This document shows positions 1 through 7,650 of a stretch of 64,000 nucleotides of DNA, in pieces (positions within the stretch are counted from its first letter, which is position 1; every line of letters starts with the position of its first letter). The DNA lies in the NCBI GenBank assembly GCA_039933875.1, contig JBDTNF010000250.1:1359-65358 (forward strand). Direction: 5' to 3'. A program made the translations under genes and the position numbers. The stretch is from Flavobacteriales bacterium (GTDB taxonomy: Bacteria; Bacteroidota; Bacteroidia; Flavobacteriales_F; PHOS-HE28). The notes beneath the pieces are model-generated. The model did no database searches. It saw nothing but the letters and a program-made list of their open reading frames with translations, and was not told the origin of the DNA.

Positions 1-78
1 TCATCATTGATCAGCACGGGCAGAAAGACCAACCAGCGGAGAAAGCCGCATGAACAAACCAACAAGGACCGTGTGACC

Positions 79-116
79 AGAAGCCCTCGGAAAGCCGGGG
101 GCTTCTTCTTTGTTTA
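79..116 (+). terminator. Rho-independent terminator-like hairpin
   Basis: AGAAGCCC (79-86) pairs with GGGCTTCT (99-106) and is followed by TCTTCTTTGTTT. It lies downstream of open frames entering from the left edge; one of them stops at 51-53. Confidence 0.5.
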
Positions 117-355
117 GGGTCTTCGTTGCGGTACCCAAGTAAGGGACAGAAGCGGTAGACCGGACCCTGAGGCTTTGTGAGGGGGAGGACTACAAGCGCA
201 TGGCCCGACGGCGAGTCCCTTAAGAAGCAATTCAAGATCACAGGTCCGAAACTGGTATGCCCTGCCAACCGACGCCGAAGAATGAAAACCACTGAACTTC
301 TCTTGGCATTCGGCGAGGTTCTTGGTTACTTCGGGAACGAAAACCGACTTCGACC

Positions 356-766
356 ATGAAAAGCGCTGCCCTCGCCCTACTGCTCTTCGTCACCTTGAGC
401 GCGAACAAATGCAATAACGACGCTGGCGAAATGACCTCGCTGCTCGACAAGAAGTGGGTTTTCCAAACGGTGGCCGGCCAGGCGTTGAAACTGCCCGATG
501 GCACACAACAGCCCTGGCTGCAACTGGCCGGTGATCAACTCTCAGGCTTTGGTGGCTGCAACCGGCTGATGGGCGGTTACAAGATGGATGGCACCAATTT
601 GAGCTTCACCGGTGTCGGTTCCACCAAGATGTTCTGCGAGGGTGTTCAGCCCACCGAGAGCTCCATCACCAAATTGCTTGGTCAGGTGGATAGCTTCAAG
701 ATGGACAGCGACCTGCTGAAGCTGATGGGTGGTGGGGCTGAGCTGGCGGCGCTGAAGGCGGAATAA
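356..766 (+). CDS. META-domain (HslJ-like) lipoprotein
   Basis: 136-aa ORF with a signal peptide plus Cys (LLFVTLSANKC). Contains GGCNRLMGGY and FTGVGSTKMFC motifs typical of META domains. Confidence 0.8.
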   Translation: MKSAALALLLFVTLSANKCNNDAGEMTSLLDKKWVFQTVAGQALKLPDGTQQPWLQLAGDQLSGFGGCNRLMGGYKMDGTNLSFTGVGSTKMFCEGVQPTESSITKLLGQVDSFKMDSDLLKLMGGGAELAALKAE

Positions 767-776
767 GCAGCTATTG

Positions 777-882
777 CTGCGGATCCCAGGTCGTGCTCCT
801 GTTGTCGTTCGCACGCCGCGCCAGTTCGCGTTTCCATGCGAGTTAGGCATCGTTCACTTCATCGCCTGGGTCGTTGTCATAG
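777..882. repeat. Direct repeat copy A: decayed duplicate of the rhomboid gene 3' end
   Basis: Aligns gap-free with 2096-2201 (about 87/106 identical by hand). The minus-sense translation is SYDNDPGDEVNDA*LAWKRELARR..TTWDPQQ. Confidence 0.85.
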
Positions 883-894
883 CTTCACTTTGCG

Positions 895-1200
895 ATGCCC
901 AAGCTGTACGAATACTTCGGTCTGGTCTTCCTGTTCTGGACGCACGAGCATGAACCCATGCACCTGCATGTGCAGTACGGAAGCAGCGAGAGCATCGTCG
1001 AGCTGATCGTGCAAGGCGGAAAACTCACCACGTTGAATTGGAGGTCCAAGCGGGGAAAGAGGGCGCTAGGTGCACAGGAAAGGGCAGAAGCTGAACGCTT
1101 CGTGCGCAACAAGTTCGCCGATATCGAACGCAAGTGGTTCGCTTACTTTGTGGAGCGGAAGCACATCACCCCGGAGCGCATCACCCGCCGCATCAAATGA
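895..1200 (+). CDS. DUF4160 domain protein
   Basis: 101 aa. The N-terminal motif FWTHEHEPMHLHVQYG matches the DUF4160 signature (DHxPPHFHxxYG). Confidence 0.8.
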   Translation: MPKLYEYFGLVFLFWTHEHEPMHLHVQYGSSESIVELIVQGGKLTTLNWRSKRGKRALGAQERAEAERFVRNKFADIERKWFAYFVERKHITPERITRRIK

Positions 1201-1574
1201 GCACCCCTGACCACATCCGTATCCGCAAAGCGACCCACATGGCCGACTATGTGATCCGCCTGGAGTTCACGGACGGCCGCGTGATCGACATGGACTTCCA
1301 TCCAGTGCTGAGCGACCCAACGGAGAATCCGATGGTGCGTGAATTCCTGGACATCACGCGGTTCAAGAAATTCCGCATCGCCGACAAGCAGGATCTCGTT
1401 TGGGGTGATCACGAAATGGGATTCCCGTTCGAGACGCTATACGCCGGTGATTTCCGGGTGCATTGGGATGGCAAGAAATATCCGGGACCGGCGAAGCTGA
1501 AGACAGGGCGTTCAGTGGTGCGTCGGGTGGCGGCAAGCCGCAGGGCTGGTGCGCAACGAACTCGAAAGGCATGA
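1197..1574 (+). CDS. DUF2442 domain protein
   Basis: The ATG at 1197 overlaps the upstream stop (ATGA). Shows the DUF2442 pattern YVIRLEFTDGRVIDMDF...LVWGDHEMGFPFETLY. The ORF-track start at 1134 is rejected as an upstream extension. Confidence 0.75.
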   Translation: MSTPDHIRIRKATHMADYVIRLEFTDGRVIDMDFHPVLSDPTENPMVREFLDITRFKKFRIADKQDLVWGDHEMGFPFETLYAGDFRVHWDGKKYPGPAKLKTGRSVVRRVAASRRAGAQRTRKA

Positions 1575-1652
1575 CCACGAGTGGCAGACTCGCGGCAGCG
1601 GGGGGGAGTGACTTGACTCTCCGCGCGACTGTTCGCCCGACTTGGTGCTTAC

Positions 1653-2093
1653 ATGCCCAGTGCACCGAAACAAATCGAGTTCGTGTTTGGCCAACTTCAT
1701 TCCGAGGTTGAGGATTCGAGTGAATACTGGCAATTGCTCTTGAACATAGGCGCTGATTTCTCTGTACGGATCAGGGACAGGGTGTTCTACCAAGAACCGG
1801 ATTTCCCTCTTGTTGAGTTCGCTGCTCAAGCCTTGCGTTGGAGGAGGGAACAAGAGCGCGACTTCCTATACACTTCAATGGAATCGGAAGAGAAACCATT
1901 GATCGGTTTCTATCAGATGAACGATCAATTCCGAATTTACTCCCCACATCAAGAATTCGAATCCACATCGACGATCGATAGAGACGCTCTTCTCAAAGCT
2001 GTTTCTGTGTTCACGCAAGAACTTCGCTCTAGATCAAGGTCCGAACTGGCTTTGGACCTTGATCTAGAACTTCTTTCCGAACGAGTTCTCTAA
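1653..2093 (+). CDS. Hypothetical protein (low-GC orphan)
   Basis: 146-aa ORF, visibly more AT-rich than its surroundings. I recognise no family. Confidence 0.55.
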   Translation: MPSAPKQIEFVFGQLHSEVEDSSEYWQLLLNIGADFSVRIRDRVFYQEPDFPLVEFAAQALRWRREQERDFLYTSMESEEKPLIGFYQMNDQFRIYSPHQEFESTSTIDRDALLKAVSVFTQELRSRSRSELALDLDLELLSERVL

Positions 2094-2923
2094 CGCTGCG
2101 GATCCCAAGTCGTGCTGGTGCTCCCACTAGCTCGCCGTGCCAGTTCGCGTTTCCAAGCTAGTTCGGCATCGTTAACCTCGTCGCCGGGGTCGTTGTCGTA
2201 GATGACCGGTAGTGCTGGTGGTGCATCCGGTTCCTCCTCCTCTTCTTCATCCAGGAACTTGGGGCGCGCATCCTGCACAGCGGGTGTCACATCGCGGTAG
2301 ACCCAAGCCAGCGCCACGCCGACGATGCCGCCCCACAAGTGGCTCTCCCAACTGATGCGCATCACGATGGGAAGCACACCCCACACCAGCCCACCGTAGA
2401 GGAAGGTGACCAGCAACGAGAGGGCCATCAGGGTGCGTTGCTTCCGCAGCATGCCGCTGACGAAGAGAAAGGCTGCCAGGCTGTAAACCACACCACTCGC
2501 ACCGATGTGGTAGTTGCCGCGCGCGCTGAGCCAGACCATGAAACCGCCCACAAGCCAGGAGACCAGCACGACGCGTCCAGCGATGCGCGGGTAGAAGTAC
2601 ATGAGGCACCAGCCCAGCAGCAGCACCGGCACCGAGTTGTTGAACACATGGTCGAAGTCGCCGTGCAGGAAGGGCGAGGCCAGCACACCCAGCAGGCCGC
2701 TCCATTCGCGCGGCAGGATACCGAAGCGCGCCAGCCCAAGGTCGAGGCCGTGATCCAGCAGGAACACCGACCACATCAGCACCACCGCCACGAAGGGCAA
2801 CACCGCCGCCGTGGCCATGCGCGCGCGGGGGTGTGGCGCTGCTGGAGGAACTGGAAGTGTATCGGTCACCGGACCAAGTTGCTCAATAATCGGTCCTGCG
2901 GTGGGTGGCGGACATTGTGGCAT
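2090..2923 (-). CDS. Rhomboid family intramembrane serine protease
   Basis: Multi-TM protein with HLxxN-type region FLHGDFDHVFNNS, catalytic GASGVVYSL (GxSG) and a downstream His (SWESHLWG). Start is uncertain: ATG at 2923 or 2818. The 3055 start in the ORF track is unlikely. Confidence 0.8.
   Translation of the reverse strand: MPQCPPPTAGPIIEQLGPVTDTLPVPPAAPHPRARMATAAVLPFVAVVLMWSVFLLDHGLDLGLARFGILPREWSGLLGVLASPFLHGDFDHVFNNSVPVLLLGWCLMYFYPRIAGRVVLVSWLVGGFMVWLSARGNYHIGASGVVYSLAAFLFVSGMLRKQRTLMALSLLVTFLYGGLVWGVLPIVMRISWESHLWGGIVGVALAWVYRDVTPAVQDARPKFLDEEEEEEPDAPPALPVIYDNDPGDEVNDAELAWKRELARRASGSTSTTWDPQR
2096..2201. repeat. Direct repeat copy B: functional 3' end of the rhomboid CDS
   Basis: Aligns with 777-882. 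Encodes the current rhomboid C-terminus ...IYDNDPGDEVNDAELAWKRELARRASGSTSTTWDPQR*. Confidence 0.85.
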
Positions 2924-3594: not shown

Positions 3595-4899
3595 ATGTCC
3601 GCGATCTTCCCCGACCGTCGCACTGCGCTGCTGATCACGGTGGCCGCACTCGGCTACTTCGTGGACATCTACGACCTCGTGCTCTTCAACGTGGTGAAGC
3701 GAGAGAGCCTGGAGTTCATCCTCGGCGCCGGCAACGTGCGCATCAAGGATGTCGGCATCAACCTGTTCAACGTGCAGATGCTCGGCATGCTCACGGGCGG
3801 CATCCTCTGGGGCGTTTGGGGCGACAAGAAAGGTCGCATCACCGTGCTGTTCGGCAGCATCCTGCTCTACTCGCTGGCCAATATCGCCAATGCGTTCACC
3901 TTCGACCTGACCAGCTATGGCATCGTGCGTTTCATCGCGGGTGTGGGCCTGGCCGGTGAATTGGGTGCGGGCATCACATTGATCGCCGAGACGATGCCCC
4001 GGGAAAAACGCGGCTACGGGACGATGATCGTAGTGACCGTGGGTGCTCTGGGCGCTGTGTTCGCGTCGCTCGTTGGTGGCCATGGCGCAGCGATCTCGGC
4101 CTGGATCGAGAACGTGACCGGACATCACCTGATGAACTGGCAGGTGGCCTACGTCGTCGGTGGTGGCATGGGCATGCTCCTGCTCGCGTTGCGCGTGGGC
4201 GCCTTCGAGAGCGGCCTTTTCAAGCGCACACAGGACACCGATGTGAAGCGCGGTGACCTCCGCCTGATCTTCGCCGACCGGACGCGGTTGCTGCGCTACC
4301 TCAGCTGCATCCTCATCGGCGTACCCATCTGGTTCGTTATCGGTGTGCTCGTCAGTCTTTCGCAGGATGTCTTCGTTCCCGAGTTGGGGATCGACACCTC
4401 ATCGCTCGATGCTGATGGCCTGAAGCGGATCAACGGCACGGCGATCATGTGGGCGTACATCGGCCTGAGCATCGGCGACCTGCTCAGCGGGCTCATCAGC
4501 CAATGGCAACGCAGCCGACGCAAAGTAGTCCTCCTCTACCTCGGCATGAACCTGGTGCTCACGCTGATCTTCCTCTTCGGCCTGCGCGGCGCGACGATCC
4601 AGACCTACAACTGGATGTGCCTGCTGCTCGGCATCGGCACGGGCTACTGGGTGATCTTCGCCACCATGGCCAGTGAGCAGTTCGGGACCAACATCCGCAA
4701 CACAGTGGCCGTTACCGCGCCCAACTTCGTACGGGGCAGTGTGTGGCCCATCACCAGTGCGTTCAAGTTCCTCGTTGGTCCCATCGGGAGCGTCGGCAGT
4801 GCATTGGTCGTCGGCTTGATCTGCATCGGTGGCGCCTTCTGGGCGGTCCTTCGCACCCCTGAGACCTTCAGCAAGGACATGGATTTCGTGGAGAAGTGA
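3595..4899 (+). CDS. MFS transporter
   Basis: 434 aa with about 12 hydrophobic segments. The loop WGDKKGR after TM2 is typical of MFS motif A. Confidence 0.85.
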   Translation: MSAIFPDRRTALLITVAALGYFVDIYDLVLFNVVKRESLEFILGAGNVRIKDVGINLFNVQMLGMLTGGILWGVWGDKKGRITVLFGSILLYSLANIANAFTFDLTSYGIVRFIAGVGLAGELGAGITLIAETMPREKRGYGTMIVVTVGALGAVFASLVGGHGAAISAWIENVTGHHLMNWQVAYVVGGGMGMLLLALRVGAFESGLFKRTQDTDVKRGDLRLIFADRTRLLRYLSCILIGVPIWFVIGVLVSLSQDVFVPELGIDTSSLDADGLKRINGTAIMWAYIGLSIGDLLSGLISQWQRSRRKVVLLYLGMNLVLTLIFLFGLRGATIQTYNWMCLLLGIGTGYWVIFATMASEQFGTNIRNTVAVTAPNFVRGSVWPITSAFKFLVGPIGSVGSALVVGLICIGGAFWAVLRTPETFSKDMDFVEK

Positions 4900-4967
4900 C
4901 CGTTCCCCGGTCCACGCTTCGACCGATCACTGGCGCACGTAGTTTTAGTGGACTGAACCCGAAAGCG

Positions 4968-6148
4968 ATGGAACGCCTTATCACCGCACTTCCACTGATC
5001 ATCACCATGGGCGCCTTCTGTCAAGCGGACCTTCGCCTGACCGAAGCCGGCATATCCAACTCAACCCGCACCCGCTCCTTCGGCAGTGCTCCATCGTTAC
5101 AAGTCGGCAGCGCGCTCCAGATCAGAGCGACCATCGATAATCCCGGAACGATCTCGCACACCAGCATCACTCTCATGGTCGAAATAGCGGGACCCAGCCC
5201 AGTGAACACCTTGCTCACTGCGGCCAACCTGGATCCGGGCGAGAGCGACATACTGCTCGAACCTGTTCCCATCCCGCTACTCGCGGAGGGGCTGTACACC
5301 GCCACACTCACGCTTTCATCCGCCGAGAGTGGTTCCGAGTCGAACCTCGCGAACAACGTCCAGGTGCGCTACTTCAGCATCACTAACAACACCTGCGCCC
5401 TGGATGGGATCGGCGTGATACCCGCCGGGGCATCGTCGGTGGCTTGGATCGGCACTTCAACCTTCCCCGATGCGGAAGATGGCTTGATCCTGATGAGCTA
5501 CGTTGATCTGAAGACCGGGACCGAAGTGGAAGGCTTCGAAGCGTTGCTTGCCCCCGGAACGCAAGCCGGTGCCGAGGTACACTTCATGGTGCTCGATACA
5601 ACGGACGTCTTGAACGGGGATGTGTACAACCCGCTGCTTGAGACGACACCCAGCGCGATAACTCCTTCCGATGTGACCAACGGCACCGTCCAGATCGCCT
5701 TGGGGTCGGGGGAAGAACTCCCGCCCGGCGGATACTTCGTGGCGATCGAACTCTTCAGCCTTGGCGGTGCGCACCCGGTGTCGATCAAGGACGATGTGAG
5801 CAACGACGAGGACCCGATCGCGAGCCTCATGTACCACCCTGGGGACTTTCAGGTATACTCCAATGGGAACGCAGTGGCTGTTCGCTTGCGGATGGGCGAT
5901 GCGATCAACGGCCTTAACGACCCGGAGCCCGGGGCCCGGCTCTCGCTTTATCCGAACCCGGCGAACGATGTTCTCCGCATTACCGGCTTGGTACCGGCAG
6001 GCCCTCACTTGTTCGGATCAGCGATGCCGTCGGAAGAACCGCACTGGAAACAAGCACGACGAACGGCACCATCGATGTCTCGTCGTTGCGGCCAGGGCCA
6101 TACGTGATCCGAACGACGGGCGGCGTTGCACGCTTCATGAAGCAATAG
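4968..6148 (+). pseudogene. T9SS-secreted beta-sandwich (CARDB-like) protein, frameshifted inside its C-terminal sorting domain
   Basis: Signal peptide MERLITALPLIITMGAFCQA. Frame 0 reads ...LSLYPNPANDVLRITGLVPAGP, then turns to nonsense. The -1 frame from about 6005 reads SLVRISDAVGRTALETSTTNGTIDVSSLRPGPYVIRTTGGVARFMKQ*, which is the rest of a canonical T9SS CTD. Confidence 0.8.
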
Positions 6149-6153
6149 CCCTC

Positions 6154-7650
6154 CTACTCCTCTTCGCCTCCGCCGCTCATCACCGAGCCCAGCACGTCGC
6201 CGAAGCGAACGCCTTCCACCAAATTGTTGCGACCGATGCGGCTATGCTCCGATAGACCGTGCAACACGAACTCCATCCACAGCGGCACCTCTTCGGGCTG
6301 GAGGTATGGGTGTGAACGCGTCACCAAGTCCTTCAGTGAGGGCAGGGCGTTGAGCGCCTTGCGGTAGTCGGCATCGTTTGCTTCGAGCAACACGTCCAGC
6401 TCATGGGCATCGAACCAGGTGATGATCTCCGCATAGGGATCGGGCTTGCCGGGGCGCTGCGCGCCGGCGGCCTTGGGCTGTCGACGCGTTTTCTCCGGAT
6501 CGGGGAACAGCTCCTTGAAGACATTGCGGATCGCGACGCTCATCAAGTGGTGCGCCACTTTTTCCGGTCCCTCCTGCTCACCCTCGTAGACCAGTTCGAT
6601 CTTGCCGGTGATGGCCGGCACGACGGCGAAGAGGTCCGTGATACGGGCTACGGTCCGTTCATCACCGCTGCGCAACGCCCTTCGTTCAGCCGCACTGATC
6701 ACACTCTCCAGCGCACTGATGGTGAGCCGCGCACTCACCCCGCTCTTCGGATCGACGAACTCGCTCGCACGCGCTTCCATGGCGATCCGTTCGACCAGCA
6801 CCCGTAACAGCTCAGGCACACGCACACGCTTCGCCTGCTCCTCCGGGCTGCGCACCTCTTGCGCAGTGATCTTCATGCCCAACTCGATGTTGCCGGGATA
6901 GTGGGTGAGGATCTGCGACTGGATCCGGTCCTTCAGCGGTGTGATGATCGCGCCACGGTTGGTGTAATCCTCCGGGTTGGCGGTGAAGACGAACTGGATG
7001 TCCAGCGGGAGGCGTAGCTTGAAGCCACGGATCTGCACATCGCCTTCCTGCAGGATGTTGAACAGCGCGACCTGGATGCGCGGCTGCAGATCGGGTAGTT
7101 CATTGATGACGAAGATGCCCCTATGGCTCCGCGGGATGAGGCCGAAGTGGATCACGCGCTCATCGCTGTAGTCGAGCTTCAGGTTGGCGGCCTTGATGGG
7201 ATCGCTGTCGCCAATGAGGTCGGCCACGGTGGTGTCCGGCGTGGCCAGCTTCTCGCTGTAGCGCTGGTCCCGGTGCAGCCAGGTGATCGGTGTGTCGTCG
7301 CCGTGCTTCGCGATCAGTTCCTTGGCGTAGCGCGAGATTGGTGCGAACGGATCGTCGTTGATCTCGCTGCCTTCCACGATCGGCATCCATTCGTCGAGCA
7401 ATTGAACGAGGGCGCGCGCCATGCGGGTCTTCGCCTGTCCGCGCAGCCCGAGCAGGTTGATGCTATGCCCCGCGAGGATCGCACGTTCCAGCGCAGGGAT
7501 CACCGTGTGCTCATAACCGTGAATGCCTTCGAAGAGCGGCTTCTTCGCGCGGATGCGGGCAATGAGGTTGGCCCGCAGTTCCTCCTTCACGGTCCGGCTC
7601 TTCCAGCCGCTCTTCTGCAATTCTCCTATCGTCGTTGGTCGGGACATCAT
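6154..7650 (-). CDS. ChlI/Mg-chelatase-like AAA+ ATPase
   Basis: Walker A-like GLRGQAKT, Walker B-like GIFVINELPDL, and the ChlI-like region ALFNILQEGDVQIRG. The start is taken at the ATGATG at 7650. Confidence 0.8.
   Translation of the reverse strand: MMSRPTTIGELQKSGWKSRTVKEELRANLIARIRAKKPLFEGIHGYEHTVIPALERAILAGHSINLLGLRGQAKTRMARALVQLLDEWMPIVEGSEINDDPFAPISRYAKELIAKHGDDTPITWLHRDQRYSEKLATPDTTVADLIGDSDPIKAANLKLDYSDERVIHFGLIPRSHRGIFVINELPDLQPRIQVALFNILQEGDVQIRGFKLRLPLDIQFVFTANPEDYTNRGAIITPLKDRIQSQILTHYPGNIELGMKITAQEVRSPEEQAKRVRVPELLRVLVERIAMEARASEFVDPKSGVSARLTISALESVISAAERRALRSGDERTVARITDLFAVVPAITGKIELVYEGEQEGPEKVAHHLMSVAIRNVFKELFPDPEKTRRQPKAAGAQRPGKPDPYAEIITWFDAHELDVLLEANDADYRKALNALPSLKDLVTRSHPYLQPEEVPLWMEFVLHGLSEHSRIGRNNLVEGVRFGDVLGSVMSGGGEEE

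Follow-up and report, generated by a model that had tools for sequence, protein, structure and literature searches.

Insertion with long target duplication is known for restriction-modification complexes (Nobusato et al. 2000, Gene 259:99; Furuta, Abe and Kobayashi 2010, PMC2853133). In such cases, an addiction pair without transposase or integrase is bordered by direct repeats of tens to hundreds of bases, the empty site is present in relatives, the repeats often span a stop or start codon, and the mechanism is unknown. A second group of described events comprises the C-terminal displacement of rhs genes and the sequential displacement of type VI secretion effector-immunity genes; the mechanism put forward for them is homology-facilitated illegitimate recombination (Jackson et al. 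2009; Kirchberger et al. 2017, PMC5361080). There, incoming homologous DNA brings a new gene end together with cargo and the old end is pushed downstream; repeated rounds lead to arrays, and orphan immunity genes accumulate. How toxin-antitoxin genes spread into chromosomes without a transposase or integrase is an old open question. Here, we analysed a stretch of 64,000 nucleotides (nt) from a Flavobacteriales bacterium (assembly GCA_039933875.1, contig JBDTNF010000250.1, positions 1,359 to 65,358; hereafter the window), in which a predicted toxin-antitoxin pair of the DhiTA family and a third gene are located between two copies of the 3' end of a rhomboid-family protease gene. The locus resembles the restriction-modification insertions in the properties listed above, and these are its closest described phenomenon. 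With middling confidence, we propose that the cargo between the copies (883-2089) is foreign and entered by host recombination anchored in the rhomboid gene, bringing a foreign gene end with it.

The features of the locus are given below with their positions in the window, which begins 355 nt left of the META-domain gene; L016 denotes the closest sampled relative.

356..766, plus strand: META-domain gene, conserved left neighbour (Pfam PF03724, E=1e-20)
771..882, minus strand: copy A, displaced and detached rhomboid 3' end, 36 codons plus TAG (771-773), 91/112 identical to copy B
883..894, plus strand: left-junction spacer of 12 nt, from copy A to the DUF4160 start codon, homologous in L016 (10/12 nt)
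895..1200, plus strand: DUF4160 gene, predicted DhiT-type toxin of 101 amino acids (aa) (Pfam PF13711, 32.4 bits against a cut-off of 23)
1197..1574, plus strand: DUF2442 gene, predicted DhiA-type antitoxin of 125 aa (Pfam PF10387, 31.3 bits against a cut-off of 23.9)
1575..1652, no strand: spacer of 78 nt between the DUF2442 and DUF7878 genes, missing from L016
1653..2093, plus strand: DUF7878 gene, 146 aa, lower G+C (GC) content (Pfam PF25297, E=1e-24)
2028..2068, plus strand: perfect 18-bp stem with a 5-nt loop in the last codons of the DUF7878 gene (folding z=-6.27)
2090..2201, minus strand: copy B, working rhomboid 3' end (last 36 codons plus TAG), continuous with the rhomboid frame
2090..2818, minus strand: rhomboid-family intramembrane protease gene, 242 aa, the target (Pfam PF01694, E=1.5e-15; product recorded as P0009)

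Read in rhomboid orientation, copy B is followed by the cargo and then by copy A, which ends 4 nt from the META stop codon. A repeat finder run on the window aligned 771-882 with 2090-2201 at 91/112 identical positions (81%) and without gaps. The narrower pair of the original prediction, 777-882 and 2096-2201, is gap-free as well and has 87 of 106 positions identical, exactly as had been counted by hand, and BLAST extended it by one position (88/107, 776-882 against 2095-2201). Both translations agreed with those given originally: copy A carries a single in-frame TAA (843-845), while its TAG stop stands at the same position as that of copy B. When copy A was slid over both strands of the 64-kb window, the mean score was 29/112 (standard deviation 4.9) and the next-best placement reached 50/112, against 91/112 for copy B; the similarity is thus far beyond chance and above the compositional background. 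Contigs from the Logan collection, originating from three runs of one rhizosphere study, covered both junctions with zero differences (window 1-966, 831-1055, 1819-2363 and 1982-2315). Since these independent contigs cross both junctions, the structure is not an assembly artefact, and the same structure was present in L016, L108 and L109, which come from other samples. The probability that chance similarity or faulty assembly produced the repeat is therefore practically nil.

The flanks of the insert are syntenic core genes in the relatives compared. In six of eight family-level Flavobacteriales genomes (L001, L002, L005-L008), the rhomboid and META genes are directly convergent, with gaps of ~10-50 nt, and the same arrangement with a 47-nt gap was found in L018/L019, whose rhomboid is 76% identical to that of the window at the aa level. 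These empty sites, each with a single repeat copy, belong to relatives at 59-76% protein identity and not to the same species; they bear out both the claim of an insertion and the claim that the repeat is a duplicated rhomboid 3' end. In L016, the rhomboid is 81-83% identical to that of the window, and L108/L109 are 99.8% identical to L016. In all three, the order is rhomboid, DUF2442, DUF4160, a second rhomboid end (a 107-nt duplication) and META, and in L016 the stop codons of the DUF2442 and rhomboid genes are 5 nt apart. In the window and L016 alike, the orphan copy begins with the same Tyr codon, and the 12-nt spacer next to it is homologous, so that this junction has a single origin. In the more distant relatives L020-L023 (rhomboid 61% identical at the aa level), the pair occupies the same site, with 23 nt separating it from META and 8 nt from the rhomboid stop, and no duplication is present. 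The DUF7878 gene was missing at this site in L016, L108/L109 and L020-L023. Its absence from relatives possessing the pair suggests a later, separate addition in the window lineage; the single three-gene cassette of the original prediction is thus replaced by a pair common to the window and L016 and a third gene present in the window only. Hence, one chromosomal site offers a clean series: empty, pair without duplication, pair with duplication, and pair with an extra gene.

Besides this series, 127 nt past the rhomboid stop of L017 (1631-1757; rhomboid 79% identical) are not META sequence and have lower GC content. The site may hold another insert in this relative, whose contig ends there.

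Between copies A and B, eleven codon differences are synonymous and seven non-synonymous; the latter include the nonsense codon and four changes clustered in a single variable patch. A 3-nt periodicity is evident in the differences (p=7e-4). An orphan drifting freely after duplication on the spot is expected to collect mostly protein-altering changes and indels. As the differences are mostly synonymous, both copies evolved as working gene ends. Copy A is 82% identical to the working end of L017 and 81% identical to copy B, the variable patch of copy A (NDNRS) matches that of L017 (HDNRS), and where the two copies disagree, L017 has the base of A about twice as often as that of B. This pattern would be expected if one end had been imported from a lineage diverged by ~19% and the other had been in use until recently. 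In this respect, one copy indeed behaves as the replacement end that had been postulated. Two gene-end copies differing mainly at synonymous positions thus represent a measurable signature, which separates import of a foreign gene end from duplication on the spot.

Our proposal of import by host recombination can be specified as follows. The incoming DNA would have consisted of the cargo joined to the last 36 rhomboid codons of another lineage. The imported version would have become the working end (probably copy B), and the resident end (copy A) would have been pushed beyond the cargo to its place beside META, where decay has begun with one nonsense codon. The joining was presumably one-sided, by homology-facilitated illegitimate recombination, and its outcome would be tolerated by virtue of both flanking genes staying whole. 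Since the two stop codons are only 4-47 nt apart, few outcomes would be harmless, among them a second joint within the resident gene end, by then redundant; this would explain why duplications are what is seen. The addictive pair would then oppose its own loss by recombination between the copies. The stabilising role of addiction is likewise put forward conditionally, and so is the succession of events along the lineages of the window and L016.

The main rival is target duplication followed by gene conversion. According to it, a true insertion in the common ancestor of the window and L016 copied ~106 nt of the target, the copies were identical at birth, and conversion and allele replacement came later. 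Several observations agree with this: the junction is common to the window and L016, and the repeat includes the stop codon, which leaves the target gene complete, and the same holds for the restriction-modification cases (PMC2853133). Furthermore, the two copies in L016 are 103/107 (96%) identical and all four differences lie in one 10-nt patch, which is conversion-like and suggests either that one copy was converted by the other or that the donor was much more closely related. Synonymous divergence (dS) between the window and L016 is 0.79 for DUF2442 and 0.58-0.80 for the flanks, i.e. equal, while DUF4160 is saturated. On the other side, identity between the window copies is no higher than 81%, their differences are strongly biased towards synonymous sites and the orphan is almost intact, although a single branch evolving neutrally should mainly accumulate non-synonymous changes and indels. 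The proportion of differing synonymous sites (pS) is also discordant: it amounts to 0.73 for DUF4160 (54 sites; window 958-1200 against L016 7088-7330), as opposed to 0.43 for the flanks (0.41-0.49, ~700 sites), with 0.49 for DUF2442. Strict vertical inheritance since the split of the window and L016 therefore fits DUF2442 and does not fit DUF4160, and the excess hints that part of the cassette was exchanged. Taken with the survey results described below, we consider target duplication possible, though rather unlikely.

Other traces of recombination are present at the site. A 6-nt deletion occurs in both window copies and is common to L017 and L018, whereas the ancestral type is found in both copies of L016, i.e. 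the tail type goes with the genome and not with the copy. The window rhomboid is nearer to L016 over its first 190 codons and nearer to L017 over the last 60, in sequences diverged by ~20%, and this switch in affinity hints at a crossover. The site has therefore seen more than one recombination event.

The recurrence of the scar was then assessed at other DUF4160 loci. A metagenome scan with a DUF4160 alignment yielded 80 loci, 74 of them testable (including the window, L016, L021, L024 and L025); a same-strand repeat was counted if it had one copy at most 500 nt ahead of the toxin gene and its other copy immediately past the pair. Such flanking repeats were present in 29 of the 74 loci, with lengths of 22-361 nt and identities of 72-96%. 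In control positions the rate was ~4% (8/210, composed of 4/110 in the window and 4/100 at unrelated loci); when positions were shifted within the surveyed loci, 2 of 20 had a repeat. After dereplication, 15 of 55 clusters retained a repeat, and 11 of these 15 repeats were at least 50 nt long. The repeated gene ends belong to methylmalonyl-CoA mutase, TypA/BipA, aldehyde dehydrogenase, DUF5916 and a type IX secretion cargo protein. The expectation that DUF4160/DUF2442 cassettes would recur between 3' ends of unrelated genes was therefore confirmed. The synonymous signature recurred as well where the gene end is conserved: the mutase ends in L027 differ at 27 synonymous and 3 non-synonymous codons with both copies intact, the aldehyde dehydrogenase ends in L034 at 5 and 1, respectively, and the differences in L024 are periodic with p=1e-5. 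For target duplication, the L027 ratio is unfavourable, and so is the lack of a single pair with 100% identity among the 29.

In L024-L026, five pieces of the mutase 3' end follow in a row (3685-3969, 4633-4923, 4947-4979, 5693-5728 and 6547-6638), separating DUF4160/DUF2442, a DUF2281-PIN toxin-antitoxin pair and a Fic gene. This array has the pattern of sequential displacement, and the scar is thus not specific for DhiTA. With scars at unrelated housekeeping genes and with arrays, an enzyme-free recombination route for addiction genes becomes directly testable.

Two loci of the survey deserve separate mention. In L025 (3144-3971), only a 275-aa C-terminal piece of the mutase is found upstream of the cassette, preceded by a CHAT-domain gene, while L024/L026 contain the full 1172-aa gene; this is a rearrangement beside the cassette. 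L107 is a contig of 2437 nt, found in six samples, with identical 27-nt ends (1-27 and 2411-2437), which holds DUF4160/DUF2442 (toxin 77% identical to that of the window) and a type IX secretion cargo gene in convergent orientation. Possible explanations are a circular molecule, a tandem repeat and an assembly interrupted at a repeat.

According to the original prediction, the locus was the footprint of a site-specific element, either reduced or mobilised in trans. As a rival, this would mean a remnant of a site-specific integrative (cis-mobilisable-like) element with its integrase lost or acting in trans, and with the copies representing attachment sites attL and attR. A gene 3' end as target and direct repeats are indeed found with many integrase-borne islands, and DhiTA also occurs in integron-like arrays (L083, L095, L101). 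However, no recombinase domain was found in the ten open reading frames (ORFs) with 220 aa or more that were scanned as far as 18.7 kb, nor in the three identified genes of the 1.2-kb insert, so that the reported lack of a recombinase holds and no relic of an integrase was seen either. An identical att-like core is lacking, the longest identical run between copies A and B being 17 nt. Related cassettes are located at unrelated genes with repeats of 22-361 nt, and this variety of targets and lengths argues against a site-specific recombinase and for recombination anchored in host genes; moreover, the repeat is lacking in a distant lineage that carries the cassette at this very site. As already claimed, there is no tRNA gene at the cassette (the only ones in the window are at 28.8 and 31.8 kb), and a tRNA, transfer-messenger RNA (tmRNA) or other RNA gene as the target was discarded, none being present at the window locus; among the other repeat-bearing loci, no tRNA or tmRNA was detected in 16 scanned and no Rfam match in 13 scanned. 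An attC or integron origin was likewise rejected here, with no Rfam match and no multi-copy element at the locus. The locus thus differs from integrase-borne islands and integron cassettes in lacking an integrase, a conserved core, attC and a multi-copy repeat, and the site-specific reading appears highly improbable. Of the original interpretation, the insertion with a replacement end is upheld by the empty sites and the synonymous bias, while the site-specific element mobilised in trans is not, given the absence of a core and the varied targets.

Another way of entry without a recombinase would be a circle formed by the host RecA pathway: the copies recombine and release the cassette with a hybrid gene end, which, once transferred, enters another genome by a single crossover with the homologous gene end. 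The left junction common to the window and L016 would then be part of the element, and both would have acquired it separately. This would account for xenologous copies and for the lack of a recombinase, as well as for the same junction being accompanied by host-type tails in each genome (the 6-nt deletion in the window copies, the ancestral type in L016); DUF4160 is also equidistant at synonymous sites among the window, L016 and L021. Nevertheless, copies of 81% identity with 17 nt as the longest identical run are a poor RecA substrate, a toxin-antitoxin pair should kill cells that lose it, and each different target gene would need a new capture event. The search for excision, circular or empty-site junctions in the contigs of the three runs returned none, a weak negative at a depth of ~5 in contigs only. 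On balance, we regard the circle as quite improbable.

Import of a foreign gene end by host recombination also has difficulties of its own. The left junction common to the window and L016 would date a one-off joint to their common ancestor (flank dS ~0.6-0.8), and an orphan of that age should be far more decayed than copy A. Extra steps would be needed, namely conversion between the copies (compare the 103/107 in L016) and later replacement of copy B with the arrival of DUF7878. In experiments, homology-facilitated illegitimate recombination is seldom observed, and its usual result is a deletion of recipient DNA, not a duplication. A donor possessing both the rhomboid and DUF7878 was not found, and the direction of import rests on ~21 sites and one relative. 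As for the survey, the controls consisted of positions only, and part of the signal comes from integron-like arrays and not from target duplications. The arrays are represented by L083, L095, L097, L099, L101 and L105 from gut or rumen metagenomes, where the same DhiTA cassette (91-99% nt identity) has different flanks and a 70-120-nt element is present in 4-5 copies per locus; DhiTA among such elements looks like an integron-type cassette array.

Compared with the described systems, import by host recombination would combine properties of both groups. Direct repeats longer than 30 bp with a single copy at the empty site are seen here (112 nt), as with restriction-modification complexes; near-identical copies, as made at insertion, are not. 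The published copies are near-identical (417/423, 47/47), whereas those of the window are 81% identical (96% in L016), synonymous-biased and xenologue-like, and the cargo is DhiTA instead of restriction-modification genes. With rhs and type VI displacement, the locus would share an incoming new end with cargo and an old end pushed downstream, repeated rounds leading to arrays (here L024-L026), and accumulation of orphan immunity genes. It differs from them in that the anchor is a housekeeping gene with functionally equivalent new and old ends, and in that the cargo is a toxin-antitoxin pair and not a new toxin tip with its immunity gene. In our literature search, no paper describing such displacement for toxin-antitoxin pairs was found. 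The cargo itself is ordinary, i.e. a known toxin-antitoxin family and a probable orphan immunity gene, and the novelty lies in the mode of entry, by which the pattern links the descriptions of restriction-modification, rhs and type VI secretion loci.

A more far-reaching possibility, which we consider speculative and unlikely, is that DhiTA pairs, and perhaps addiction modules generally, are self-sufficient mobile units, which enter at gene ends with long variable duplications or imported ends and are kept because the killing of cells that have lost them blocks deletion between the repeats. If true, the breaks or recombination needed for insertion might be triggered by the activity of the toxin itself or by the stress of losing the antitoxin, in parallel to the life cycle proposed for restriction-modification systems, and displaced gene ends would constitute a general, datable fossil record of such invasions.

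As for the cargo, domain content and gene order place the DUF4160/DUF2442 pair in the DhiTA type II toxin-antitoxin family, and on the same grounds the window pair is predicted to be a toxin-antitoxin system. The toxin gene comes first, both genes are on the same strand, and the DUF2442 start overlaps the DUF4160 stop (ATGA); DUF2442 is full length compared with its homologues. For the homologous DhiTA in Dickeya dadantii, growth inhibition by the toxin, its neutralisation by the antitoxin and repression of the pair's own promoter by the complex were demonstrated by experiment (PMC8198452), a homologous pair raises plasmid persistence in Thermus (PMC12724237), and the same family was named as an effector domain of Menshen systems (PMC12065111). 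DhiTA of D. dadantii 3937 (PMC8198452) has DUF4160 first and DUF2442 second with an overlap of a few bases and proteins of similar size. Unlike there, the start of the window toxin is only 12 nt from the displaced gene end, which leaves no room for the usual autoregulated promoter region. A sigma-70 promoter scan of copy A, which does not cover Bacteroidota promoters, detected none.

The AlphaFold model of DUF4160 is confident (predicted local distance difference test, pLDDT, 91.6) and consists of five strands and a long helix; against the PDB, it had no match with E below 0.35, and no recombinase fold was recognised. The family invariants are H19, P21, H23, H25, Y5 and Y7. The idea that DUF4160 might be a small HUH-type nuclease or recombinase is unsupported, given a confident model without a PDB match, and profile matches of DUF4160 to ankyrin repeats were dismissed as spurious motif matches. 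In the L016 lineage (L016 ~7337-7393, also L108/L109), a deletion of 7 nt follows about codon 19 of the toxin gene, whose called product measures 80-82 aa; the antitoxin is intact, and the toxin seems to be decaying first.

The presence of three plus-strand genes between the copies, one of them of lower GC content, was recovered as originally described, with GC of 0.455-0.49 over 1700-2100 compared to 0.56-0.65 around. The lower-GC gene, originally taken for an orphan, belongs to a Pfam family, DUF7878 (E=1e-24); its TAA stop overlaps the rhomboid TAG stop, and the window's own protein has no record elsewhere. Homologues at ~50% identity follow large polymorphic-toxin-like genes. One of them (P0002) overlaps the 3' end of a 1305-aa TIG/YD-shell gene (a weak match) in the four contigs L010-L013, where no toxin domain was identified. 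Overlap with a large toxin-like gene is the arrangement of immunity genes, from which it follows that DUF7878 is probably an orphan immunity gene of a polymorphic-toxin system, which stands alone in the window. Neither a significant fold (z=-0.38) nor, as read by eye, any convincing relic of a third repeat copy was observed in the spacer in front of it (1575-1652). The hairpin at 2028-2068 is followed by a T-rich stretch and has GAACTTC on both sides, and it may act as a two-way terminator for the convergent genes.

Finally, the rhomboid protein of this clade bears a C-terminal cytoplasmic tail, GD.VN.AEL.WKRKLA....GNVSTTWD, located after an acidic run (window 2202-2260 and relatives). This tail is strongly conserved family-wide, and yet it is the very part that has been duplicated.

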